Assembly (NCBI GenBank): GCA_965203055.1
Contig: OZ241863.1
Location: 2,112,001-2,176,000, forward strand
Source of the DNA: Spirochaetia bacterium
GTDB taxonomy: Bacteria; Spirochaetota; Spirochaetia; SZUA-6; Bin103
Length of the DNA stretch: 64,000 bases
Reading direction: 5' to 3'
Below are positions 38,025-50,335 of this stretch, piece by piece (positions within the stretch are counted from its first letter, which is position 1; the number at the start of each line of letters is the position of its first letter). Below the pieces are notes generated by a model. It saw only the letters and a program-made list of their open reading frames with translations, had not been told where the DNA came from and ran no database searches. A program made the translations under genes and the position numbers.

Positions 38025-38108
38025 GTGGTCGACCGCGGTGCAATCCATCGGCACCTCCTGGACCCAAGTTCCAGAGGCTATGATAAGTTGTTTCTATGTA
38101 GTTGTTTA
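38025..38108 (+). repeat. 84-bp inverted repeat, left copy (partner 50021-50104)
   Basis: 77/84 identity to the reverse complement of 50021-50104 by hand alignment. Confidence 0.9.
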
Positions 38109-38230: not shown

Positions 38231-39754
38231 ATGATGAAACATCTGGTGTATCTGGCTCTAGCGGCAGGCGCTCTTGCGATGATGGGATGTGGCGGAGTTG
38301 CACCCCCGAAGCCTGCAGCTCCGCCGGCGGCAGATCCGCCGGCGCCTACAGCGGCCAAGTACTCCTGCGGCGATGGCTACATCTTCGACGGTGATCAAGT
38401 GCTCGGGCCGGAAGGCGCGGTTGTCAATGATGTCTTCTACTGGGGTTCGAACACCTCGGGAGCGGCGCGATGCTTCTCTGACACTCGAAACAACAGTATG
38501 GTTGGCGTTGGCAGCAGGGTAGAATCGAACGCAGGCGATGCCACAGGCGCAACAGTCATGTCAGTTACCCTTCCTGACGAACGCAGGTGGTATTTCATAC
38601 TTGAATTCTCCGATGGCACCTACTGTTCTGCGGCCTCTGCAGGGGATGGGAGAGCGGCCTGCTTTGCAACGGTGGAACGAGATGCTACCGGATTTCGCTT
38701 GGACGATCTCCCTGCTGTTACACTCCCTGTTCCTGCAGGCGCACCGGAGCCTCCTCTTGTTGAAGATCCCCCCGAGCCTCCTGTTGGCAATACTTATTTC
38801 CGGTGGGGAAGGATCGAAGAAGTTACTACCGACCAACGTAGGTGGTATCTCATACTTGGGTACGGTCCTGGTGAGATCGTCGACGGGCGCGACGACGACC
38901 CCGGGCGGGGTGACCCCGCCTGTATTGCGGCTACTGCAGGGGATGGGATAGTGACCTGCACTGCAACAACGTTTCAAGGTAATGGTGACGATAAATATAC
39001 CACAGACGATCTCCCTGCCTCTACCTCGCCTCAATCTTCCGAAGGCACCGATGCCATATATGCGTACATTAGAGTTTTTAGTCGCCAGGGGGGTCTCTGG
39101 TATCTCGTGCTTGAATCCCCTGATGGCACCTTCTGTTCTGCGGCCACTGCAGGGGATGGGATAGTGACCTGCACGAGCCATCCGTATCCTCCGCTGAGTG
39201 GTGATTGGGTCCCCCCCGGTGGTCCTGGTCCTGGTGGTGGCGACGGGGGCGGGGGGCAAACTGGTGCCCCGGAGCCGGAAGATCCTCAGCCTGTTGGCAA
39301 TACTTATTTCCGGTGGGGAAGGATCGAAGAAGTTACTACCGACCAACGTAGGTGGTATCTCATACTTGGGTACGGTCCTGGTGAGATCGTCGACGGGCGC
39401 GACGACGACCCCGGGCGGGGTGACCCCGCCTGTATTGCGGCTACTGCAGGGGATGGGATAGTGACCTGCACTGCAACAACGTTTCAAGGTAATGGTGACG
39501 ATAAATATACCACAGACGATCTCCCTGCCTCTACCTCGCCTCAATCTTCCGAAGGCACCGATGCCATATATGCGTACATTAGAGTTTTTAGTCGCCAGGG
39601 GGGTCTCTGGTATCTCGTGCTTGAATCCCCTGATGGCACCTTCTGTTCTGCGGCCACTGCAGGGGATGGGATAGTGACCTGCACGAGCCATCCGTATCCT
39701 CCGCTGAGTGGTGATTGGGTCCCCCCCGGTGGTCCTGGTCCTGGTGGTGGCTGA
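38231..39754 (+). CDS. Repeat-containing lipoprotein A (unrecognised WYxIL...C-x11-C repeat, 5 copies)
   Basis: Signal MMKHLVYLALAAGALAMMG-C; Pro-rich linkers; lower GC; five CxAAxAGDGxxxC motifs. Confidence 0.85.
   Translation: MMKHLVYLALAAGALAMMGCGGVAPPKPAAPPAADPPAPTAAKYSCGDGYIFDGDQVLGPEGAVVNDVFYWGSNTSGAARCFSDTRNNSMVGVGSRVESNAGDATGATVMSVTLPDERRWYFILEFSDGTYCSAASAGDGRAACFATVERDATGFRLDDLPAVTLPVPAGAPEPPLVEDPPEPPVGNTYFRWGRIEEVTTDQRRWYLILGYGPGEIVDGRDDDPGRGDPACIAATAGDGIVTCTATTFQGNGDDKYTTDDLPASTSPQSSEGTDAIYAYIRVFSRQGGLWYLVLESPDGTFCSAATAGDGIVTCTSHPYPPLSGDWVPPGGPGPGGGDGGGGQTGAPEPEDPQPVGNTYFRWGRIEEVTTDQRRWYLILGYGPGEIVDGRDDDPGRGDPACIAATAGDGIVTCTATTFQGNGDDKYTTDDLPASTSPQSSEGTDAIYAYIRVFSRQGGLWYLVLESPDGTFCSAATAGDGIVTCTSHPYPPLSGDWVPPGGPGPGGG
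38780..39751 (+). repeat. Identical 462-bp direct repeats (38780-39241 and 39290-39751), period 510 bp
   Basis: Direct sequence identity; in-frame duplication. Confidence 0.93.
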
Positions 39755-39990
39755 GGCTGAGGCGGCTGAGGTGGTCCCGGTTGGTTAGACAGTCCGAGGG
39801 GTAGGTTAAGGTGTATCCGTCGGTTGTCAACCTACCCCTCCCTCTGCAAATCAGGCGGCGGTAAATCGGGGGTGGGGTCCGGGGCGGGGGTAGCTGTCCC
39901 TGTGGATATGTGGACAACTCCCGCTCCGCGGTGCGCAGCCACTCGCTCCGTTCCCGGTGCTTGCAGTTTGCCCCCCCCCCCCCCATCTCG

Positions 39991-40823
39991 CTACGCCACC
40001 TGCCCGGCCGGCGCCGCCACGCCGCAGTACCCCTCCGCCGGCGTCCGCCCGTCCAGCGCCGAGTGGGGGCGTACCTCGTTGTAGAACTCCATCCACTCCG
40101 CGATCACGCGCTGCGCCGCGAAGCCGTCCGCCAACTCGTGCAGGTACACCGCCTCATACTTCAACGACCGCCACAGCCGCTCGATGAACACGTTGTCCAG
40201 GCAGCGCCCACGACCGTCCATCGAGCAGCGTATCCCGGCCGCCTCCAACTGCCCCGTGAACGCCCTGCTGGTGAACTGGCTGCCCTGATCGGTGTTGAAG
40301 ACCTCCGGCTTGCCGTAGCGCTCCTGCGCCTGTGCCAACGCCAGCAGGCAGAACTCGCTGTCCAGCGTATTCGCCAGTTCCCAGGCCAGCACCCGCCGAC
40401 TCGCCCAGTCCATCACCGCCACCAAGTACAGGTACCCGTCCTGCACCGGGATATAGGTGATGTCTGCGCACCACACCTGATTCGGTCGCGTAATGGTAAG
40501 CCCTCTCAACAGATACGGATACACTTGATGGTCCGGGTTCGGCACCGTGGTGCGCGGCTTGCGGTAGATCGCCTCCAACCCCAGCAGCCGCATCAGCCGT
40601 CGCACCCGGTGGCGCCCCGCCGTTACCCCTCCCGCGCCAGATGCCGGGCCAGCTGCCGACTGCCGTAGAACGGGTACTTCAGGTACAACTCGTCGATGCG
40701 GCGCATCAAGCTGAGCGTCGCCGCGCTGGCTCCGCGCGGTCGGTAGTACAGGGCCGAGCGGCATACGCCGAGCAGCCGGCACTGCCGACTCAAGCTGAGA
40801 CTCGAATGCTCGCGGTCAACCAT
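39991..40823 (-). pseudogene. IS3 orfB (DDE integrase core), frameshifted near 40625
   Basis: LSRQCRLL..YGSR in one frame; WCADITYI, NTDQGSQF, DNVFIERLWRSLKYE in another; break falls in a G run. Confidence 0.85.
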
Positions 40824-40843
40824 CAGCCGTCGTTGCTCCAGGC

Positions 40844-41128
40844 TCAGCGATCGAGCCCGCGCGCTAAAAAATCACGCTCCACGGTCAACTCGCCAATCTT
40901 GGCATGGAGGTCATGGATGAGCGCCTCCTGCTCGGCGGGGCCGCGCTTGGCGGTCGCGGCGAACAGTTCTTCGAGTCCGGTCTGGGCTTGCCGCTTCCAG
41001 ACGCTGACCTGATTTGGATGAACGTGGTGCTTGGCAGCGATCGCCTGGATCGTGCGGTCCCAGCGGAACGCCTCCAGCGCCACCCTGGCTTTGAACTGTG
41101 CTGTGAATCGGCGTCGTTTCGTCGCCAT
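40844..41128 (-). CDS. IS3 orfA (HTH transposase subunit)
   Basis: KRRRFTAQFKARVALEA...VHPNQVSVWK...KIGELTVERDFL; T6 run near the orfA/orfB junction. Confidence 0.9.
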   Translation of the reverse strand: MATKRRRFTAQFKARVALEAFRWDRTIQAIAAKHHVHPNQVSVWKRQAQTGLEELFAATAKRGPAEQEALIHDLHAKIGELTVERDFLARGLDR

Positions 41129-41195
41129 CCCATCGGCCCTCCTCATGGCCTGGAATACACCTTAACCTCCTGTCCAATTTTCCGGGACCACCTCA

Positions 41196-41370
41196 CCTCA
41201 ATCTTCCGAAGGCACCGATGCCATAGCTGCGGTAGTGGGACTTCGCTCTAGCCAGTGGTAATCTCATACTTGAATCCCCTGATGGCACCTTCTGTTCTGC
41301 GGCCACTGCAGGGGATGGGATAGTGACCTGCACGAGCCATCCGTTTCCTGCTCCGTTTCCTGGGCTATGA
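41196..41370 (+). pseudogene. Silent fragment of the lipoprotein repeat (variant C-terminal unit)
   Basis: PQSSEGTDAI-AAVVGLRSSQW/LILESPDGTFCSAATAGDGIVTCTSHPFPAPFPGL*; scaffold DNA nearly identical to lipoprotein A, different loop and tail, 1-nt frameshift. Confidence 0.85.
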
Positions 41371-41637
41371 AGTGAACCGGGGCTCTGCAGGCATGGCCGC
41401 GGCGCGCTTGTAGCCGATGCGACCGGCCAGCAGCCAATGATAGCCGTAGAACTGCGAGCTGGTGGTGCGGGCCGCCCCGTGGGCGCACGCGGCCAGCAGC
41501 CGCCTTCCACCAGAAAATCCTACGATTTCGCGTGCGAACGGGCGTTGACGCGGGCTGGCGCCGGGCCAGCGGCGGCCTTCGGAGCCCTTGCGCCCCCGGC
41601 CGTTGGTGGGTAGATTCTCTGTCAGGAGGGAGGTGAG

Positions 41638-44577
41638 ATGCGTTGGCGTGATGCAGGTGACTCCGGTGGTGGGTCGGCGGCCGGGAGTAGTGGGACCCTG
41701 AACAAGGCGTCGCTGTATGCCCTGTTGAAGACCATTCTACAGTCGTCCGAGAGGGTGCACGTCGAGGCGGACGATCCGCATTTCAGGCTGACGCTGTCGC
41801 TGACTGACGATGCTCGGGTGGTCCTTGAGGGTGCTGTCCAGGTGGACGGTATCGATCTCTCCGGGCGTGATCTGGGGTTCTCCAGTGACGGGGGGAGCAG
41901 TGTCAGCTTCACGATGCCCGGCATCACGACGGCGGATGAGGGAAGCGACCTCGGGCGGGTAAATACCGTCGAGAAGCTCAACTTCACAGGCGCGGGCGTG
42001 ACGGCGACGCGCGTGCCCGGTTCGCCTGAGACTACCGTCAACATTCCCGGCGCCAACCCTGGGTCGGGCGGTGTGTCGTTGGCGCAGGTGGACGGGCGGA
42101 TCGATGGGAATCCGCGGGTGACGAGTCTGTCGCGCTTCGAGGCGGCGCTCCGCAAGACCACCGTCATCAGCGGACCCGCTGCCTTCACGGTGGCGTCGCC
42201 GAACGCCGCGGTGGCGATCAGCGGGTCGGTGCCGGGCGCGGAAGCGGACCGCGAGCTGGTGGTGGCGGTGACCGGCTCCCCCACCCAGACGTTCCAGCTC
42301 TCCTCGTTCGCCGGCAAGGATGCGGCCGCCGCCGCCATCACGCTCACGGACGCCAACTCGGTAAAGTGGATGGCGGGCACGGTGACGTATCGCCTTGGCC
42401 ACACCGCCGCCGGGGGGTTCGTTGCGTCCGCCAGTACCGCCGCCACCTACACCATCACCTTGACGGACAGCCGGATCGACCTTGAGACGTGGGCGCGGCG
42501 AAACGGCGAGCAGATTCCCGCCAACCGCCTGCCGAACGGCGGCGGGCTGGGGCAGGCTGCGGTGGACGCGCGGATCGACGCGAATCCGCGGGTGACGAGT
42601 CTGTCGCGCTTCGAGGCGGCGCTCCGCAAGACGACCGTCATCAGCGGACCCGCTGCCTTCACGGTGGCGTCGCCGAACGCCGCGGTGGCGATCAGCGGGT
42701 CGGTGCCGGGCGCGGAAGCGGACCGCGAGCTGGTGGTGGCGGTGACCGGCTCCCCCACCCAGACGTTTCAGCTCTCCTCGTTCGCCGGCAAGGATGCGGC
42801 CGCCGCCGCCATCACGCTCACGGACGCCAACTCGGTAAAGTGGATGGCGGGCACGGTGACGTATCGCCTTGGCCACACCGCCGCCGGGGGGTTCGTTGCG
42901 TCCGCCAGTACCGCCGGCACCTACACCATCACCTTGACGGACAGCCGGATCGACCTGGAGGGTTGGGCGCGGTTGAACGGCGGTCAGATCCCCGCCAACC
43001 GCCTGCCGAACGGCGGCGGTCTGACCCAGGGGCAGGTGGACGCGCGCATCGAGCCGTTCGCGCGCGCCGGCACCACCACCAGGGTGCCGGAATCGCACCT
43101 CCCGACCGACCTCGACCACCTTCTGGACGCGCTGGCCGACGGCGGGTGGTCCACGGAGGGGAACAACGCCGCCGAGGATGCCTGGATCGCCCAGGTTGCC
43201 AGCGCCGTGGGCCCGACCATCGGGGCGGCGCGCGGCTACACCTACGCCAGCGCCACCTGGGAGCGGACCGGCCCCACGATTACGCCGGCGTGGCTGACCG
43301 TGCGGGTGCCGGCGGGGCTGAAGGATGAGGTGGCCGCCGGGAACCTGCGTCTGATCGCCGACTACAACAACGACCCGGACGACATGGGCGATATCGCGGT
43401 GTCGAGTGGCTGGATCCACGTGGGGGACAGCACGGACGGCACCTACCGGTACTACATCCAGCGCTTCACGGGGGTGCCGGCGGGAACCAACATCGTGCAG
43501 CGCTACACCCGGTTCCGCATCGACCGCACCAAGCTCGACACCGGGGTGCCGGTGGGGACGGCGGCGGATGCAGGCGCCGTCCTGACCAAGCGCGCTGATG
43601 GGCCGGTCTGGGAGCAACTGCGGCGCCTGCACGGTCTGCAGGTGCTGCATCACGGGAGCATCGCCCGATTGGCCCTTTCCGCCTTGAATGCGATTGGGAC
43701 CCAGAACCTGACCGGCTTCGCCCCGGCGTTCGATCTCGATGATCACCCTGCCGGTGAGATCCATGCGGAGGTGGTGGCGCGCATCGTCACGCGGAGTGCG
43801 TCCAACATCGGGTGGGGCTCTGGTGGCGCGGACATTGATGGCCGGATCGTGGGGTTGGAGTTCGCCAGCGCCGTGGCGGCCGCTGATGCGTTTGTGTCGG
43901 GGGGCACGGTAGAGGGGGTCGAGGTTGGCCACCTCCTCCTTTACAAGGGTGCGGCGAAGCAGGGCGTGCTGCGGTTCTATCTGGGGCGTGACGGCTCGAA
44001 TCGTGCCGGGTATCTGCTCGACTACCGGCCGGAGAGCGGTGCTTCGAGTACCGACAACGTCACCATCGACGCGCAGCTCGACGTGTCGTTCATGCCGGCG
44101 GACGGTGGTGGTGGCAGTACTAGCGGCGTAGGCGCCAAGATTGCGACCTACGCGTTTCCAGTTGCCGCAGCGAGTTACCAGGCCAGGGTCATGATCCACG
44201 GCACATGGACCATCGAAAGCGCTGGCGCCTCGCGATACGAGCGAAGCGGTAACAACGATGCCCTGCGCATCCCGCGGGTTCTGCCGGATACGCAAGTGGG
44301 CTTTCGCGGTGTAGTGAAGGTTGGTTCTGCTACGGTATCGACATTCTTCGTGCCGTGGACGCTGCTGGTTGCGCCATCAACCACTAGCACTCACTTTGAT
44401 CATGTCAATCAGGACTACTACATGACCATTCCTTACGATGCTCGGGATAGTTATACCGTCCTGCTTATCGTGCAACGGCAGGGCTTGAATACCTATAAGG
44501 ACGCTATCTTCTTCCGCGGCTGCGGCGACAATATTCCGGCTGGTGTGACCGTCGAGTTGTACGAGTGGATGGCGTGA
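41638..44577 (+). CDS. Large Gly/Ala/Thr-rich tail-fibre/adhesin-like protein A (979 aa)
   Basis: Strong SD AGGAGGGAGG; 158-aa internal repeat; VEKLNFTGAGVTAT and QVDARI segments reminiscent of phage fibres; no signal peptide. Product is inferred. Confidence 0.7.
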   Translation: MRWRDAGDSGGGSAAGSSGTLNKASLYALLKTILQSSERVHVEADDPHFRLTLSLTDDARVVLEGAVQVDGIDLSGRDLGFSSDGGSSVSFTMPGITTADEGSDLGRVNTVEKLNFTGAGVTATRVPGSPETTVNIPGANPGSGGVSLAQVDGRIDGNPRVTSLSRFEAALRKTTVISGPAAFTVASPNAAVAISGSVPGAEADRELVVAVTGSPTQTFQLSSFAGKDAAAAAITLTDANSVKWMAGTVTYRLGHTAAGGFVASASTAATYTITLTDSRIDLETWARRNGEQIPANRLPNGGGLGQAAVDARIDANPRVTSLSRFEAALRKTTVISGPAAFTVASPNAAVAISGSVPGAEADRELVVAVTGSPTQTFQLSSFAGKDAAAAAITLTDANSVKWMAGTVTYRLGHTAAGGFVASASTAGTYTITLTDSRIDLEGWARLNGGQIPANRLPNGGGLTQGQVDARIEPFARAGTTTRVPESHLPTDLDHLLDALADGGWSTEGNNAAEDAWIAQVASAVGPTIGAARGYTYASATWERTGPTITPAWLTVRVPAGLKDEVAAGNLRLIADYNNDPDDMGDIAVSSGWIHVGDSTDGTYRYYIQRFTGVPAGTNIVQRYTRFRIDRTKLDTGVPVGTAADAGAVLTKRADGPVWEQLRRLHGLQVLHHGSIARLALSALNAIGTQNLTGFAPAFDLDDHPAGEIHAEVVARIVTRSASNIGWGSGGADIDGRIVGLEFASAVAAADAFVSGGTVEGVEVGHLLLYKGAAKQGVLRFYLGRDGSNRAGYLLDYRPESGASSTDNVTIDAQLDVSFMPADGGGGSTSGVGAKIATYAFPVAAASYQARVMIHGTWTIESAGASRYERSGNNDALRIPRVLPDTQVGFRGVVKVGSATVSTFFVPWTLLVAPSTTSTHFDHVNQDYYMTIPYDARDSYTVLLIVQRQGLNTYKDAIFFRGCGDNIPAGVTVELYEWMA
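42087..43034 (+). repeat. 474-bp tandem repeat (2 near-identical copies) within protein A
   Basis: 42108.. and 42582.. are near-identical at an offset of 474 bp. Confidence 0.92.
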
Positions 44578-45653
44578 TGGACTCGCCGTCATTCCCGACC
44601 GGTCGTTCCGCGCCTGACGCGCGCGCCGTGCGGCCGCTGGCGAACGCGCCGCCGGCCTCCCCGGCCCGGACCGTGCGCAACGCCGCCCCGGCCCGGACCG
44701 TGCGCAACGCCGCTCCGCGGACCGTGCCGGCGCTCGACAGCGACATCGAATCCCTGGTCACCGAGGATGATACGCCGGTGGACAACCTGCCCTCCGAGAA
44801 GCAGCAACGCCTGCTCACCGAGCCGTTGTACAGTTCCTGGGCCGGCCCCGGCGGCGGGCGCCCGTTTCTGGCCGCCGCCAACGTGGGCGTGTTCCCTGAA
44901 GCGCGCAATCCGGCGATCGTGCCGGACGTGTTGCTGAGTCTGGACGTGCAGGTGCACGAGAACTGGTGGGACAAGGAGCACCGCTCCTACTTCGTGTGGG
45001 AGTTCGGCAAGGCGCCGGACCTGGTGGTGGAAATCGTGTCCAACCGGAAGGGCGAGGAGATTGGGAAGAAGCGGATGAGGTACGCCCGGATGGGGGTTGG
45101 CTACTACGTGGTCTCCGATCCGTTGCGGCAGGTGATGGGAGATGAGCTGCGCGTCTTTCGGTTGAGCGGCGGGGGATACGAACGCCAGGAGTGGCCCTGG
45201 TTCCCGGAGCTGGGGCTGGGGATGACGCTGTGGGAGGGGGAGTTCGAGGGCGTGCGCAGCCGGTGGCTGCGCTGGACGGACGCGCAGGGCGAGTTGATCC
45301 CCACCGGCAAGCAGCGTGCAGAGCAGCAACAGCAGCGCGCAGAGCAGGAGGCGGCCGCTCGCCAGGCCGCAGAGACCCGTGTCCAACAGGAGGCGGCCGC
45401 GCGCCGCCAGGAAGCGGACGCACGCCAAGCCGCAGAAATCCGCGTCCAACAGGAGGCGGCCGCCCGCCGCCAGGAAGCGGACGCACGCCAAGCCGCAGAA
45501 ATCCGCGTCCAACAGGAGGCGGCCGCCCGCCGCCAGGAAGCGGACGCACGCCAAGCCGCAGAAATCCGCGTCCAACAGGAGGCGGCCGCGCGCCAAGCGG
45601 CCGAAGCGCGGGTGGCCGAACTCGAGGCATTGCTAGGCCGCAGATCCACCTGA
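44577..45653 (+). CDS. Uma2/DUF820 family endonuclease with coiled-coil repeat tail
   Basis: LVTEDDTPVDN, IVPDVLLSL, YFVWEFGKAPDLVVEIVSN, WLRWTD..GELIPTG; TGATG overlap with upstream stop. Confidence 0.9.
   Translation: MDSPSFPTGRSAPDARAVRPLANAPPASPARTVRNAAPARTVRNAAPRTVPALDSDIESLVTEDDTPVDNLPSEKQQRLLTEPLYSSWAGPGGGRPFLAAANVGVFPEARNPAIVPDVLLSLDVQVHENWWDKEHRSYFVWEFGKAPDLVVEIVSNRKGEEIGKKRMRYARMGVGYYVVSDPLRQVMGDELRVFRLSGGGYERQEWPWFPELGLGMTLWEGEFEGVRSRWLRWTDAQGELIPTGKQRAEQQQQRAEQEAAARQAAETRVQQEAAARRQEADARQAAEIRVQQEAAARRQEADARQAAEIRVQQEAAARRQEADARQAAEIRVQQEAAARQAAEARVAELEALLGRRST
45381..45605 (+). repeat. 63-bp tandem repeat (VQQEAAARRQEADARQAAEIR, about 3.5 copies)
   Basis: Unit starts at 45381, 45444, 45507, 45570. 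Confidence 0.92.
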
Positions 45654-45887
45654 CGCTATCTGCGTCGGAAGTGGCCCGGCGGCCCTCGGCTCGGCTGGCT
45701 TGGATAGCTTGGCTCTCGCTGGATTCCCAGAATAGATCGCTGGCCCGGACGGCCCTGCAATGTCCAGCGCTGCCGGAACGTCCCGATCGCCGGCGCTCCG
45801 CGGGTGCCAAGTGCGGCAGTTGACCCGCTACCGGCGATGTTTGGTCGGCGAGCGCAGCCGGGCGCGCAAGACCCTCGACCACGTCGC

Positions 45888-46775
45888 TCACACGTTATAG
45901 CGCTCGAACCGGCCGGCGATGTTCCGGCGGGTAGCTTCCTCCTGCGAAATGAGCTGGCTGGCGGAGAGGCCCGTCAGGTTCTCCATCTGCTCCAATCGCC
46001 GGGCGAACAACGGCAGCCCCAGTTGCTCCGCTCCCCCAGCCTGCGACGTAGTGCTGCCGATGAGAATGTTGTTGGCTGCTTCCAGCTTCGACCGCCCATG
46101 CATGACGTCCCGCACGTACTTGCCGGCCCAGCCCGGGCCGGCATTCCACGCCAGCCCCATGAGCCCGCCTGCCTGCCGGACCGTCCCCACCAGACCCTTG
46201 GTGATGGCATCCGCCACCGGAGCCCAGTGCGACCGCCACAATGCGCCCGTGCGCATGATCTGGTTATTCGACATCCCTTCGTCGACGCGCAGACGTTCCG
46301 CCTCATCGGCGCGGCGTGCGGCAGCTCCCCAATCCGCCCCGAAGTTCTCGCCGGCAAGCGTCGCCCAGGTGTCGCCGGCGTCCCTGTAGACGCCGTTCCG
46401 CACCATCTCGCCATTGATTTCCTCGCCGTCGTTGCGCTTGTCGATCCACCGTTCCTTGCCGATCAGCGACTCGATGATCTGATCGTATTGCTGATCCGTG
46501 CCCTGCCATCGATCCCGGTTCGTGCGCCGGTCATCATTCACCGGTTCGACGGCCCGCGAACCTCCGGTGATCCGGATCACCTGACCGGGATGGATCAGAT
46601 CCGGGTTCTCGATGTTGTTCCGCTGGGCCAGCGCTTGCACCGTCGTGCCGTACCGGCGCGCGATGGCGCCCAGGGTCTCCCCCGGGCGCACCGTATGGGT
46701 CTGCGTCTCCGGAGACCGCGCCTGCCGGCGCCCCGGATGCCCCGGCGCGGCGCCAAACGGAGTATCTGATGCCAT
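45888..46775 (-). CDS. LysM domain protein with putative lysozyme-like C-terminal domain
   Basis: HTVRPGETLGAIARRYGTTVQALAQRNNIENPDLIHPGQVIRI is a clear LysM; VYRDAGDTWAT and GLAWNAG resemble GH24 motifs (tentative); GGAGG before ATG 46775. Confidence 0.75.
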   Translation of the reverse strand: MASDTPFGAAPGHPGRRQARSPETQTHTVRPGETLGAIARRYGTTVQALAQRNNIENPDLIHPGQVIRITGGSRAVEPVNDDRRTNRDRWQGTDQQYDQIIESLIGKERWIDKRNDGEEINGEMVRNGVYRDAGDTWATLAGENFGADWGAAARRADEAERLRVDEGMSNNQIMRTGALWRSHWAPVADAITKGLVGTVRQAGGLMGLAWNAGPGWAGKYVRDVMHGRSKLEAANNILIGSTTSQAGGAEQLGLPLFARRLEQMENLTGLSASQLISQEEATRRNIAGRFERYNV

Positions 46776-46867
46776 CCTGCGATCCTCCCATTGACCAGTG
46801 GCGGCGTCGAAGTATACCCCCAATATCCGCCCTCGTCACCTCCTCGATGGCGGGCGGGCGACGGCGC

Positions 46868-47012
46868 GCGCATTTCCAAAATGCAGGTAAGGGTCGGGCC
46901 GCTTGGCGGCCAAGCCCAGTCCCCGGCTGCGCCGGCGCCTGAGCCGATACCTTCGCCGCCGAAGGAGCGGCGCTGTCCGCGCTGGCCACCGCAGCGCCGC
47001 GCGCCGAGGCCG
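46868..47012 (-). repeat. Internally deleted remnant of the HNH locus at 57526-58983
   Basis: 46868-46919 matches 57526-57580 and 46922-46982 matches 58049-58109. Confidence 0.85.
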
Positions 47013-47074
47013 CTAAGGATAACTTGTTTCCATGTCGTTGTTTATCATATTATGGACTGCATTGTGTACGGGGG

Positions 47075-47103
47075 TTGACAGCCGAACGGAATCACCTTAA
47101 CTT
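47075..47103 (+). promoter_or_regulatory. Putative sigma70 promoter of lipoprotein B
   Basis: TTGACA-17 nt-TAACTT; paralogous to 38137-38165. Confidence 0.55.
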
Positions 47104-47166
47104 ACCAACATATGCCGTCCAGGCGGCATCGCCTCAGTGCTGTCTCCGCTTGCGGGACCGGGGGGA

Positions 47167-48498
47167 ATGATGAAGCATCTGGTGTATCTGGCTCTAGCGG
47201 CAGGCGCTATTGCGGTGACAGGATGTGACGACGTTGCAGCTCCGAAGCCTGCAGCTCCGCTGGCGGCCGCACCGGCGCCTACACCGGCGGCCGAGTACTC
47301 CTGCGGCGATGGCTACATCTTCGACAGTGATCAAGTGCCCGGGCCGGAAGGCGCGGTCGTCAACGATGTCTTCTACTGGGGTTCGAGCACCTCGGGAGCG
47401 GCGCGATGCTTCTCTGACACTCGAAACAACAGCATAGTCGGCAGGGTAGAATCGAACGCGGGCGATGCCATAGCCGCAACAACCATGTCAGTTACCCTTT
47501 CCGGCGAACGCAGGTGGTATCTCATACTTGAATTCTCCGATGGCACCTACTGTTCTGCGGCCACTGCAGGGGATGGGAGAGCGACCTGCTTTGCAACGGT
47601 GGAACGAGATGCTACTGGATTTCGCGTAGACGATCTCCCTGCTGTTCCACTTCCTGTTCCTGAAGGCGCACCGGAGCGTCCTGTTGTAGATCCTCCCGGT
47701 GGTCCCGGTCCTGGTGGTGGCGACGTGGGCGGGGGGCATACCGGTGCCCCGGAGCCTGCCCCGAAGCCGGAAAAGAGGAAATTCAAGAATGCAAGGGTCG
47801 CCTATATTGCGGACCCGGATCAGAGCCGAGGCGGCGTTGACCGCCTGAGATTCGTTACCCGGGAGGGATTGGACGATTACGACGATCTTCCTGACGAACG
47901 TAGGTTGTATTTAATACTTAAGTTGAACGTTCCACGTGACGGTTACATCACCTCTCATAATTGTATTGTGGCTACTACAGGGAATGGGAGAGTGACCTGC
48001 GTTGCACCGTTGAAATTCTGGTGGGACCATTCTCACTGCAGCGACGGCGAATGCAATGGAGACGGTGATGGTCATATTCGGTTTACATATAACGCCACAG
48101 GACGGACCGCGCCGCATCCATCAGTAGACCATTTCCCTACCTCTACCTCGCCTCAATCTTCCGACGGCGACAATGCCATAGGCGTGACAGCCTATCTCCT
48201 CTATAGTGATGTGCAAAGCAACCCTCGCCACTATGGCAGGGAGACTTTTTACGTACCTCCAGGCTGGCCTAGTTCTCCTAGCACAGATAGGTGGTATTTC
48301 ATACTTGCATTCTCCGACCTCCACCCGCATCGCCCGTTTGATCTCGATCTCGATCCAAACGGGGTCAATGATCATACCTTCTGTATTGCGGCAACTAAAG
48401 GTGATGGAATAGTGACCTGCCATGAAATGGTGAAAGGAGTTTCTACTAAATATGCGAATGGTTACATTGACCAATGGGAAGTACCATACGTGCCGTAG
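47167..48498 (+). CDS. Repeat-containing lipoprotein B (paralog of A; 3 C-x11-C repeats)
   Basis: Signal ending VTG-C; first ~175 aa highly similar to A, later units have different loops. Confidence 0.85.
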   Translation: MMKHLVYLALAAGAIAVTGCDDVAAPKPAAPLAAAPAPTPAAEYSCGDGYIFDSDQVPGPEGAVVNDVFYWGSSTSGAARCFSDTRNNSIVGRVESNAGDAIAATTMSVTLSGERRWYLILEFSDGTYCSAATAGDGRATCFATVERDATGFRVDDLPAVPLPVPEGAPERPVVDPPGGPGPGGGDVGGGHTGAPEPAPKPEKRKFKNARVAYIADPDQSRGGVDRLRFVTREGLDDYDDLPDERRLYLILKLNVPRDGYITSHNCIVATTGNGRVTCVAPLKFWWDHSHCSDGECNGDGDGHIRFTYNATGRTAPHPSVDHFPTSTSPQSSDGDNAIGVTAYLLYSDVQSNPRHYGRETFYVPPGWPSSPSTDRWYFILAFSDLHPHRPFDLDLDPNGVNDHTFCIAATKGDGIVTCHEMVKGVSTKYANGYIDQWEVPYVP

Positions 48499-48508
48499 CG
48501 GTGAGCGG

Positions 48509-48552
48509 TGAGGTGGTCACCGGTTGGTTAGACAGTCCGAGGGGTAGGTTAA
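48509..48552. mobile_element. Orphan IS3 end (copy of 39767-39809)
   Basis: TGAGGTGGTC(A)CCGGTTGGTTAGACAGTCCGAGGGGTAGGTTAA. Confidence 0.88.
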
Positions 48553-48601
48553 CCGAGATTCTCAACTACTGCAAGGCCACCCTGATCTCAATCCACAAGA
48601 C

Positions 48602-48630
48602 TTGACAATATCTCAGAACACCGGTAATTT
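48602..48630 (+). promoter_or_regulatory. Putative sigma70 promoter upstream of protein B
   Basis: TTGACA-17 nt-TAATTT. Confidence 0.6.
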
Positions 48631-48791
48631 TGGTACGAAGCGGTCCCGCCGACTACTGGCCGCGAATGGCTTGTCGTTGCGGGACCCGGACATCTGAACG
48701 GGCGCGGGCTGGCGCCGGGCCGGCGGCGGCCTCGGAGCCCCTCGGCCCCCGGCCGTTGGTGGGGTAGATTCTCTGTCAGGAGGTAGGTGAT

Positions 48792-49796
48792 ATGCGTTGG
48801 CGTGATGCAGGTGACTCCGGTGGCGGGTCGGTGGCCGGGAGTAGTGGGAGTTTTGAGGAAGCGCTACGGCGCGTAACTGTCATTGTGGACGGAGATACCG
48901 TCAACATTTTGAATCGTCCTGCTCCCTATCGGATAAGCAGCGATGCTATAGTTCCTGAGAGAGAGGCTGACAGGAGGCTACGGTTGGCGGCGAGCACGTC
49001 GGCTATTGATTCTGCGGAACTGGACGGCGAGTCTACCACGATCAAGCTGTCCGATCTTCTCGCCAAGCAGGTGATTCCGACTCGCTCGCATGTGATGAAC
49101 TCGTCCAACTCGGTGACGTTCCGGGGCGTTGAGGGTAGGACGATGTACATTGGGACGATGTACATTGGCAGGTCAGAAGATCGCCAGTTCCTGATCGGTT
49201 CCGACTCCCCCAGTACCTATCGCGTCTACATCCGTGACGACCGGATTGACATTCGCCCGGAGCGCCTCGAAAGGACGGTTGATGACCGCATCAAGCCGTT
49301 CGCGCGCGCCGGCGCCACCCCCACCAAGATTGCGACCTACAGTTTTCCACCTGCCGATTTAGAGCCGTACCCGGCGGGTACTCCTATCAACGGCAGTTGG
49401 CTCATCGCAAGCACCGCTACCCCCGATCGATACGAGCCAAGCGATGACAACATTGCCCTGCGCATCCCGCGGAATCTGCCGGCTACGCTATCGGGCTTTT
49501 ACGGTGAAGTGAAGGTTGGTTCTACTAAGGTATCGACATTCATCGTGCCGTGGACGCTGGTGGTTGCGCCCACTAGCACTAGCGCTCTCACACTTAACGC
49601 TCATAATGTCGAGCAGGGCTATTACATGACCATTCCTGACAATAATCAGAATGGTTATAGCGTCATGCTTGTCGTGCAACGGCAGGCCGTAAATAACTAT
49701 AAGGACGCTATCTACTTCCGGGGCTGCGGCAACAATATTCCGGCTATTCCGGCTGGTGTGCCCGTGACCGTCGATTTGTACGAGTTGTTGTCGTGA
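48792..49796 (+). CDS. Tail-fibre/adhesin-like protein B (short paralog of 41638-44577)
   Basis: Shares upstream region, N-terminus MRWRDAGDSGGGS.AGSSG, RIxPFARAG and the C-terminal KIATY..FP...YKDAI.FRGCG.NIPA domain. Confidence 0.78.
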   Translation: MRWRDAGDSGGGSVAGSSGSFEEALRRVTVIVDGDTVNILNRPAPYRISSDAIVPEREADRRLRLAASTSAIDSAELDGESTTIKLSDLLAKQVIPTRSHVMNSSNSVTFRGVEGRTMYIGTMYIGRSEDRQFLIGSDSPSTYRVYIRDDRIDIRPERLERTVDDRIKPFARAGATPTKIATYSFPPADLEPYPAGTPINGSWLIASTATPDRYEPSDDNIALRIPRNLPATLSGFYGEVKVGSTKVSTFIVPWTLVVAPTSTSALTLNAHNVEQGYYMTIPDNNQNGYSVMLVVQRQAVNNYKDAIYFRGCGNNIPAIPAGVPVTVDLYELLS

Positions 49797-50020
49797 CGGC
49801 CAATGGCCCTCGCGTACCGTGACAGACAACTTCGGCGGCGGCGTGAATGAGCGGTCGCCGGTATGGCGGCGAGGCGCGACGGCAGCGCTCCGGTGGTGAA
49901 CCGGCCGCCCCCGGCAACCGCAACGGCGCCGTCCACTGCCGTGCCGTCCATGACACTGAGCACCGATCACCAGGGTTACCACGGTCCGGCGCAACGGCGA
50001 GTCCTATCCGATCCGATCGA

Positions 50021-50104
50021 TAAACAACGACATAGAAATAAGTTATCATAGCCTCTGGAACTTGGGTCCGGGAGGTACCGATGGATTGCACCGCTCTCGA
50101 CCAC
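50021..50104 (-). repeat. 84-bp inverted repeat, right copy (partner 38025-38108)
   Basis: See left copy. Confidence 0.9.
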
Positions 50105-50107
50105 TTC

Positions 50108-50194
50108 ACCTATAAGGACGCTATCTTCTTCCGCGGCTGCGGCTACAATATTCCGGCTGGTGTGACCGTCGAGTTGTACGAGTGGATGGCGTGA
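50108..50194 (+). pseudogene. Third, silent copy of the 3' end of the tail-fibre-like genes
   Basis: 86/87 identical to 44491-44577, followed by the 23 nt found downstream of protein B (49797-49819). Confidence 0.9.
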
Positions 50195-50335
50195 CGGCCA
50201 ATGGCCCTCGCGTACCGCGCTGCGGTCGTGGTTCGAGGTGGCGACCGGCAAATCGTACACCCGGTCGGTTACCACGGTCCAGCGCAGAATAACTCGCTGG
50301 CCCGGACGGCCCCGCAATGTCCAGCGCGCGGGCGT

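Follow-up and report, generated by a model that had tools for sequence, protein, structure and literature searches.

The receptor-binding tips of phage tail fibers and tailocin fibers evolve under diversifying selection, as described for lambda J in the consulted part of PMC6646904. Diversity-generating retroelements (DGRs) of the BPP-1 Mtd type form a second point of reference, and the mosaic adhesive trimer (MAT) fibers of Bdellovibrio, which are chromosomal phage-like fibers on the cell surface, form a third (excerpts of PMC3240598 and PMC10769870, respectively). We analyzed a chromosomal stretch of 64,000 nucleotides (genome positions 2112001 to 2176000; hereafter, the window) from a Spirochaetia bacterium that is described as sponge-associated and has a 4.56-Mb genome of approximately 70% GC. 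Two fiber-like genes lie there on the plus strand. Gene A (41638 to 44577) encodes 979 residues arranged as an N-module, two 158-residue shaft repeats, a further shaft region, and a C-terminal knob. Gene B (48792 to 49796), recognized as an open reading frame (ORF) and by BLASTP to A, is a short paralog of 334 residues with the same first 20 residues and a knob of the same family. The knob domains (146 residues at 44137 to 44574 in A, 156 residues at 49326 to 49793 in B) share 60% amino acid identity, and that of A is the fast-evolving part of its gene, as judged by the alignment to B, an AlphaFold model, and the dN/dS ratio (omega). Their differences are almost purely non-synonymous, and positive selection on the ligand-binding knob of orphan, phage-derived fibers is the explanation that we favor, with a probability of roughly 0.65.

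Both ORFs and the repeat blocks between them had been noticed in a sequence-only reading of this DNA and were found as described; A 44220 to 44392 aligns with B 49415 to 49587 at 83% identity, and 44399 to 44541 aligns with 49603 to 49745 at 85%. That reading had counted about 29 non-synonymous and 3 synonymous differences in 92 codons, and in 103 aligned codons of the same block (44233 to 44541) we counted 37 and 3. Across the whole domain (44137 to 44574 versus 49326 to 49793), a codon alignment guided by the protein sequences covered 145 codons, of which 83 are identical, 58 have non-synonymous differences, and 4 have synonymous ones, so the near-purely non-synonymous C-terminal divergence is real: 58 of the 62 differing codons alter the amino acid. 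The differences fall on codon positions 1, 2, and 3 at 39, 34, and 16 sites, and all four insertions or deletions (indels) between the knobs are in frame. By the Nei-Gojobori method (NG86), the whole domain has a dN of 0.280, a dS of 0.123, and an omega of 2.27 (Fisher P = 0.008), and the block 44233 to 44541 has an omega of 3.11. GY94 maximum likelihood under three frequency models gave omega values of 2.46 to 2.98 for the whole domain (likelihood ratio test [LRT] against omega = 1, P = 0.0068 to 0.0010) and 3.15 to 3.71 for the block (LRT P = 0.0077 to 0.0020). Formal dN/dS by codon alignment, the check proposed in the earlier reading, therefore exceeds 1 by both NG86 and maximum likelihood. 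The observed omega was reached in only 1 of 300 neutral simulations with fitted parameters, and pN equaled or exceeded pS in 8/8 sliding windows over the knob. Among knob codons with a single difference, 4 were synonymous and 37 non-synonymous, where a synonymous share of 0.24 was expected (P = 0.018). Taking a dN/dS significantly above 1 in the correct frame as the mark of a gene under positive selection, we found such a value here, and it rests on the A/B pair.

The only frame open in both knob copies is frame 0 of the plus strand. An overlapping or antisense gene was considered as the cause of the conserved third positions and rejected, the other five frames containing 1 to 15 internal stops per copy; in the best antisense frame, sense position 2 is also position 2 of the antisense codon, yet it varies at 34 sites.

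Two controls were taken from the shaft. Paralog C, a full-length gene 1.1 Mb away (genome 1045813 to 1048749), is 97% identical to gene A over the first 1915 nucleotides and ends in a knob that belongs to the same family but is very different. Codons 1 to 638 of A and C gave a dS of 0.063 and omega values of 0.15 to 0.33, and the internal 158-codon repeat of A (a 474-nucleotide repeat present twice) gave 0.24 to 0.46. These shaft controls, of similar synonymous distance, are under purifying selection, and omega above 1 is specific to the knob pair. The earlier proposal of diversifying selection on a probable binding tip is thus supported by omega values above 1 in three methods, by the frame, and by shaft omega values below 0.5. 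Among 57 knob sites that were polarized, 27 are derived in B, 20 in A, and 8 in neither, with 2 ties, and the 11 columns invariant in 15 family members are all kept in A and B. Changes in both copies with the invariant residues kept fit selection for two specificities and not decay.

We propose that A and B are fiber proteins of phage ancestry, each ending in an all-beta knob of about 150 residues that is likely the ligand-binding tip. The two knob modules would have had a recent common ancestor, by duplication or module transfer, at a synonymous distance of about 0.1, which is similar to the divergence of the upstream region that the genes share (approximately 9%). Both knobs would then have gained replacements at approximately 2.5 to 3 times the synonymous rate while the fold-defining residues and the frame were kept. 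The cause would be ordinary mutation together with positive (diversifying) selection for different binding specificities; knobs would also have been exchanged between shafts as modules, and no dedicated mutator would be needed. The knob probably represents the distal ligand-binding end because of its position, its fold resemblance, and the behavior of such tips in phages. Demonstrated here are omega above 1, the correct frame, intact domains with confident models in both copies, the lack of DGR parts, and the phage ancestry of the N-module, whereas ligand binding, trimerization, and ligand identity are inferences.

The knob family is new and previously unannotated; adaptive divergence of a fiber tip is in itself a well-known phenomenon. 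Unlike known phage or tailocin receptor-binding tips, proteins A and B match no family in Pfam, PHROGs, or NCBIfam, and tblastn found no match in 50,697 phage records. Searching 1.84 billion representative proteins with a knob profile gave 16 matches (5 at E ≤ 1e-10), and near-length searches retrieved four relatives of B, including the 95% identical metagenomic protein P0003, and one relative of A. An exact 15-nucleotide duplication in gene B (49138 to 49168), through which TMYIG is encoded twice, is absent from P0003. Short forms of 296 to 297 residues consist of the N-module and a knob (P0004 to P0006), and long forms have 650 to 1200 residues. Only P0009 among the relatives matches tail-fiber PHROGs, and it does so through a collagen-like stretch; P0020 has a lipoprotein signal peptide. 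Identity is uneven along the relatives, being 86.5% before the knob and 67.8% within it for A versus P0007, and 88.4% and 78.4% for P0005 versus P0006. Judged from these sequences, the knob is a module carried on different N-terminal parts. It occurs in 2 of 24 genomes of the taxonomic family and the shaft occurs in the same 2; the genes are therefore accessory. As for the DNA of knob relatives, 0 of 48 genome-contig candidates and 0 of 214 metagenome-contig candidates were confirmed.

The AlphaFold model of the A knob has nine beta strands (predicted local distance difference test [pLDDT] score, 86.9; predicted template modeling [pTM] score, 0.83), and that of the B knob is likewise a nine-stranded all-beta domain with the strand order of A (pLDDT, 82.1; pTM, 0.80). 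The insertions specific to B fall in a low-confidence loop of the model, as does an in-frame 3-nucleotide insertion at 44391 to 44397 in a contig of sequencing run X3. Structural matches are weak and of one kind (best Foldseek E value, 0.017), namely, TNF/C1q-type knobs and phage or tailocin fiber tips. The knob is thus predicted to be an all-beta sandwich that weakly resembles the TNF/C1q type, for which the trimeric knobs of the BclA C-terminal domain, the C1q globular head, 4-1BBL, PRD1 P5, and the adenovirus fiber are the named comparisons. In the ESM Atlas, the best scores of 0.76 to 0.77 belonged to viral hypothetical clusters for the knob and to clusters named "Lipoprotein" for the neighboring lipoprotein, and these serve as leads only.

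The evidence for phage ancestry comes from a second genome of the same genus (G009), in which a prophage region with terminase, portal, major head protein, and integrase genes adjoins three old knob paralogs. A 1281-residue protein of this region carries an SU10_adaptor domain (6.3e-07), and its residues 304 to 439 match residues 24 to 156 of gene A at 35% identity. Since this homolog of the N-module follows terminase, portal, and head genes, the fibers are of podophage ancestry. In the order of that locus (L084:394-11752), the head module (terminase, SU10/P22-like portal, major head protein) precedes the 1281-residue SU10-type adaptor-fiber fusion, which would be an unusual tail architecture. 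The designation "tail-fibre-like" in the sequence-only reading accordingly holds in part: no tail-fiber family is matched, but the N-module is homologous to a prophage adaptor-fiber protein and the knob model weakly resembles TNF/C1q and fiber knobs.

Unlike phage or tailocin tips in their usual setting, such as the monocin side fiber (9j1l), A and B lie in a chromosomal island without a detected terminase, portal, or capsid gene, and they are not in a detected phage structural module of this genome. The host genome has no match to Phage_portal, Terminase_6N, or Phage_capsid (HK97-type), and tblastn with the portal, head, and terminase proteins of G009 found nothing in it. It also has no SU10_adaptor or SU10_portal match, although both of these searches were silent in every control genome and are less telling. 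Whereas the same-genus prophage homolog carries the adaptor domain, A and B have none; no N-terminal Pfam domain for virion attachment was found in either, and both proteins start at a Gly-rich linker. Paralog C likewise lacks the adaptor domain and starts at the linker, and A, B, and C look like orphan fiber genes.

Several points weigh against positive selection. The knob pair was picked post hoc, by eye, and is one pair only, and because the result rests on such a pair, we grade the significance of omega above 1 as moderate. Replacements are not enriched in loops (31 of 69 loop positions versus 26 of 75 strand positions, P = 0.24). The knob paralogs of G009 have saturated synonymous sites and omega below 1, and are uninformative on selection. 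A rival view holds that one or both knob copies are decaying orphan remnants close to neutrality, with omega above 1 arising from relaxed constraint and chance through sampling, post hoc choice of the pair, or a misspecified model. The island around the genes does contain an IS3-family element, a gene remnant, and repeats, its two lipoprotein paralogs have omega values of 0.73 to 1.07, and the genome offers no phage particle genes for the fibers to serve. Multinucleotide changes are present, with 21 of the 62 differing codons differing at two or three positions; the alignment is uncertain in the first 35 residues, and the single-difference codon count, the most conservative test, reached only P = 0.018. 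However, omega = 1 was rejected both by the LRT and by simulation, the highest omega (3.1 to 3.7) comes from the gap-free block, both ORFs are intact with indels in frame only, and both domains keep the family-invariant residues and model confidently.

Conservation across samples also argues against relaxed constraint. At least part of the stretch occurs in 19 of 20 listed runs (7 studies), none of which is an RNA run, and four of them (X1, possibly the source sample, X3, X6, and X9) were compared by contigs, which hide rare variants, with knob figures taken from the pieces listed (40 of 494 difference rows). Among these pieces, contigs from other studies carry near-identical knobs. For the A knob, X1, X6, and X9 show no difference and X3 shows 2; the B knob shows 0 in X1 and 3 and 1 in two X3 pieces, and X6 holds one divergent low-depth B allele with 47 differences and 23 gaps. 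In P0003, all 156 residues of the B knob are unchanged, against 11 differences in the 173 aligned residues outside it. Taken together, we consider relaxed constraint a rather unlikely account of the knob divergence.

A second alternative, which we also regard as unlikely, is that the knobs are imported mosaics, patched through recombination or gene conversion with diverged knob alleles that circulate in phages or other strains, with the selection signal having been generated elsewhere. The genes are clearly modular, which favors this account. A and B have in common only a 93-nucleotide upstream region (41545 to 41637 before A and 48699 to 48791 before B, both on the plus strand), the first 58 nucleotides, a 37-nucleotide patch, and the C-terminal domain of about 150 residues. 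The upstream region is also present before paralog C, with approximately 90% to 91% identity over 93 to 94 nucleotides among the three copies, and it includes a Shine-Dalgarno-like AGGAGG just before the ATG, so that A, B, and C each have their own ribosome-binding site. Short forms with only the N-module and a knob exist besides the long ones, and contigs of X3 show other joins, from 42050 to 44125 and from 44577 to 47083. The GC content at third codon positions (GC3) is 0.87 to 0.88 in the shaft and 0.60 to 0.66 in the knobs (0.62 to 0.66 in that of gene A and 0.60 in that of paralog C). Along gene A, it declines steadily from 0.90 to 0.95 in the shaft repeats to 0.62 in the knob, and the housekeeping genes of the window are at 0.90 to 0.94. 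The gap between knob and shaft suggests separate module histories, and together with the uneven identity of knob and pre-knob parts in the relatives it leads us to think that knob modules also move between shafts. However, imported diverged DNA would bring synonymous differences, whereas dS is only 0.07 to 0.12 and pN is at least equal to pS in every window. Because of this low dS, the mosaic account shifts the place of positive selection and does not replace it.

The sequence-only reading had also been reminded of DGR mutagenesis, in which the knobs would serve as variable repeats that a reverse transcriptase (RT) alters at template adenines, now or in a lost ancestral phage. As in DGRs, the variable part lies at the 3' end of the fiber genes, and codon positions 1 and 2 account for most of the changes. 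The island also holds, at 50108 to 50197 on the plus strand, a promoterless remnant of a gene-A-like 3' end (87 to 90 nucleotides, 98% identical to 44491 to 44580 by blastn; repeat family D10), whose coding part differs from A only by GAC to TAC at a codon that reads AAC in B; the GAC/AAC/TAC codon reported across the three copies is therefore real (44527, 49731, and the remnant). In addition, AAY codons number 12 in B versus 5 in A. The parts and signature of a DGR were, however, not found. An RVT_1 search of the whole genome gave two places only (301848 and 523259), which belong to a PADLOC Drt1a gene (6.5e-117; genome 301.1 to 303.8 kb) broken by 2 TGA codons and a UG6-like RT of more than 880 residues (PADLOC RT_UG6, 2.2e-22; genome 522.3 to 525 kb); both are defense-type RTs more than 1.5 Mb from the window, and none is of the DGR type. 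No template repeat was detected when both genes and both knob regions were searched against the genome by blastn (word sizes 11 and 7), the only matches being A, B, the remnant, and a 40-nucleotide match at the 3' end of paralog C, with the rest at E ≥ 2. Neither of the genome-wide searches proposed earlier, for a DGR RT and for a template repeat, thus found its object, and no RT was present among the 24 scanned ORFs of the two G009 loci (L084 and L085).

The base changes themselves show no adenine bias. Many codon pairs do have an A in one copy, as had been remarked, and the count is correct (47 of 89 differing sites; the A belongs to copy A alone at 19 of them and to copy B alone at 28), but it is not above the 42.8 expected from composition. 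At the remaining 42 sites, neither copy has an A; 32 differences are transitions and 57 are transversions, and the third base is Y in 65% of variable versus 60% of invariant codons, so that no AAY-codon signature is seen. The indels and non-A differences that the earlier reading had itself pointed out are confirmed, the third-position differences number 16, and the region is 435 nucleotides long. With both copies taken as variable repeats of a template since lost, roughly half of the sites would be expected to lack A, as observed, and the A count by itself does not speak against this version. It is nevertheless unlikely in view of the indels, the changes at third positions, the absence of DGR parts, and the alleles that are stable across the listed contigs and in P0003. 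The DGR reading is hence refuted for this genome, by the terms in which it was put forward (no RT, no template repeat, no A bias), and in any form it is very improbable. As a caution, variation at codon positions 1 and 2 together with a three-state codon can mimic the DGR signature without any DGR.

In the Mu G and P1 C segments, alternative tail-fiber 3' cassettes are switched by site-specific inversion. The island resembles them in having several fiber C termini close together, including the promoterless 3' remnant beside an inverted repeat, but differs in that the knob copies are direct and the inverted repeat duplicates the upstream region of a lipoprotein gene. An invertible cassette was therefore rejected: among the scanned island ORFs, there is no invertase or resolvase, and no recombinase but the IS3 transposase. 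The inverted repeat (84 nucleotides, 92%) has its arms at 38025 to 38108 and 50021 to 50104; the sequence, which is found upstream of lipoprotein gene 1, recurs upstream of lipoprotein gene 2 (47018 to 47165), and the right arm abuts the remnant at 50108. Contigs of X1, X3, and X6 join approximately 47055 to 47067 to 50018 to 50021 on opposite strands.

Lipoprotein gene 1 (38231 to 39754, plus strand) encodes a signal peptide and Cys (N terminus MMKHLVYLALAAGALAMMGC) and internal 510-nucleotide repeats (D1, D3, and D4), and its paralog, lipoprotein gene 2 (47137 to 48498, plus strand; likely start at 47167), lies directly upstream of gene B. The product of lipoprotein gene 2 has weak colinear similarity (25% to 27% over about 132 residues; pairwise E values, 2e-4 and 1e-5) to the N terminus of the knob-bearing P0020 and to a G009 protein beside a knob gene. 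This conserved neighborhood with lipoprotein genes and these similarities hint at an envelope role; the fibers may serve either the cell surface or a phage-like particle encoded elsewhere. In a tentative reading of low probability, the bacterium would have retained three orphan fiber genes of podophage origin, freed of the virion-adaptor domain and each with a ribosome-binding site, whose products act as cell-surface adhesins with the adjacent lipoproteins and whose knobs were split by positive selection for different partners. This would amount to a domestication of phage receptor-binding modules, with the host, other microbes, or phage decoys as possible partners, a state comparable to that of the Bdellovibrio MAT fibers. 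Surface display is proven for the latter (in the excerpt of PMC10769870), whereas A and B have no signal peptide, and the comparison is drawn by analogy.

If positive selection has indeed acted here, two paralogs of a single genome carry a clean signal of adaptive divergence, in a knob family without earlier annotation. The family would mark a surface by which a sponge-associated bacterium, or its phage, recognizes a partner, and would supply two natural knob variants for specificity testing. What merits follow-up is the orphan state of the new family next to lipoprotein genes in a sponge-associated bacterium.

The genes belong to an island of lower GC content at approximately 37.7 to 50.3 kb of the window, which lies between ordinary housekeeping genes. 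GlnA, GlnE, LigD primase-polymerase, and SDR genes border it at one end, and a LarA-like gene, PolX, and an ABC transporter do so at the opposite end. Besides genes A and B, the remnant, and the two lipoprotein genes, the island contains an IS3-family element, a Uma2-family ORF, and a LysM protein. The IS3-family insertion sequence (39762 to 41197, minus strand, ends approximate) lies between lipoprotein gene 1 and gene A and was identified by its rve, rve_3, and HTH_21 domains, a PHROG transposase match, and multicopy ends; it consists of orfB (39991 to 40782) and an orfA-like frame (40844 to 41146), both on the minus strand. It sits in the repeat region of lipoprotein gene 1 and interrupts its 3' part, the repeat remnant resuming at 41171 to 41349, and its end sequences are found again elsewhere in the genome.

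The Uma2-family endonuclease-like ORF (44565 to 45653, plus strand; Pfam Uma2, 1.2e-15) and the LysM-domain protein (45888 to 46823, minus strand; Pfam LysM, 9.5e-18) are island cargo. The former contains a 63-nucleotide tandem repeat in four copies with 95% match (45345 to 45594) and a 27-nucleotide repeat at 44655 to 44727, where metagenome contigs vary in copy number, and the whole ORF is missing from the X3 contig that joins 44577 to 47083. Short multicopy elements of 32 to 48 nucleotides, 97% to 100% identical, and present at at least 9 genome sites, lie at 48505 to 48615 and 46792 to 47085 and look like a MITE or REP-like repeat family; the depth of metagenome contigs spikes sharply over 46792 to 47085. 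Finally, the closest relatives of the flanking GlnE (67% to 74% identity) come from metagenome-assembled genomes labeled Gemmatimonadaceae, Longimicrobiales, Spirochaetia, and Latescibacterota, a conflict at the phylum level that suggests inconsistent labeling of one lineage.

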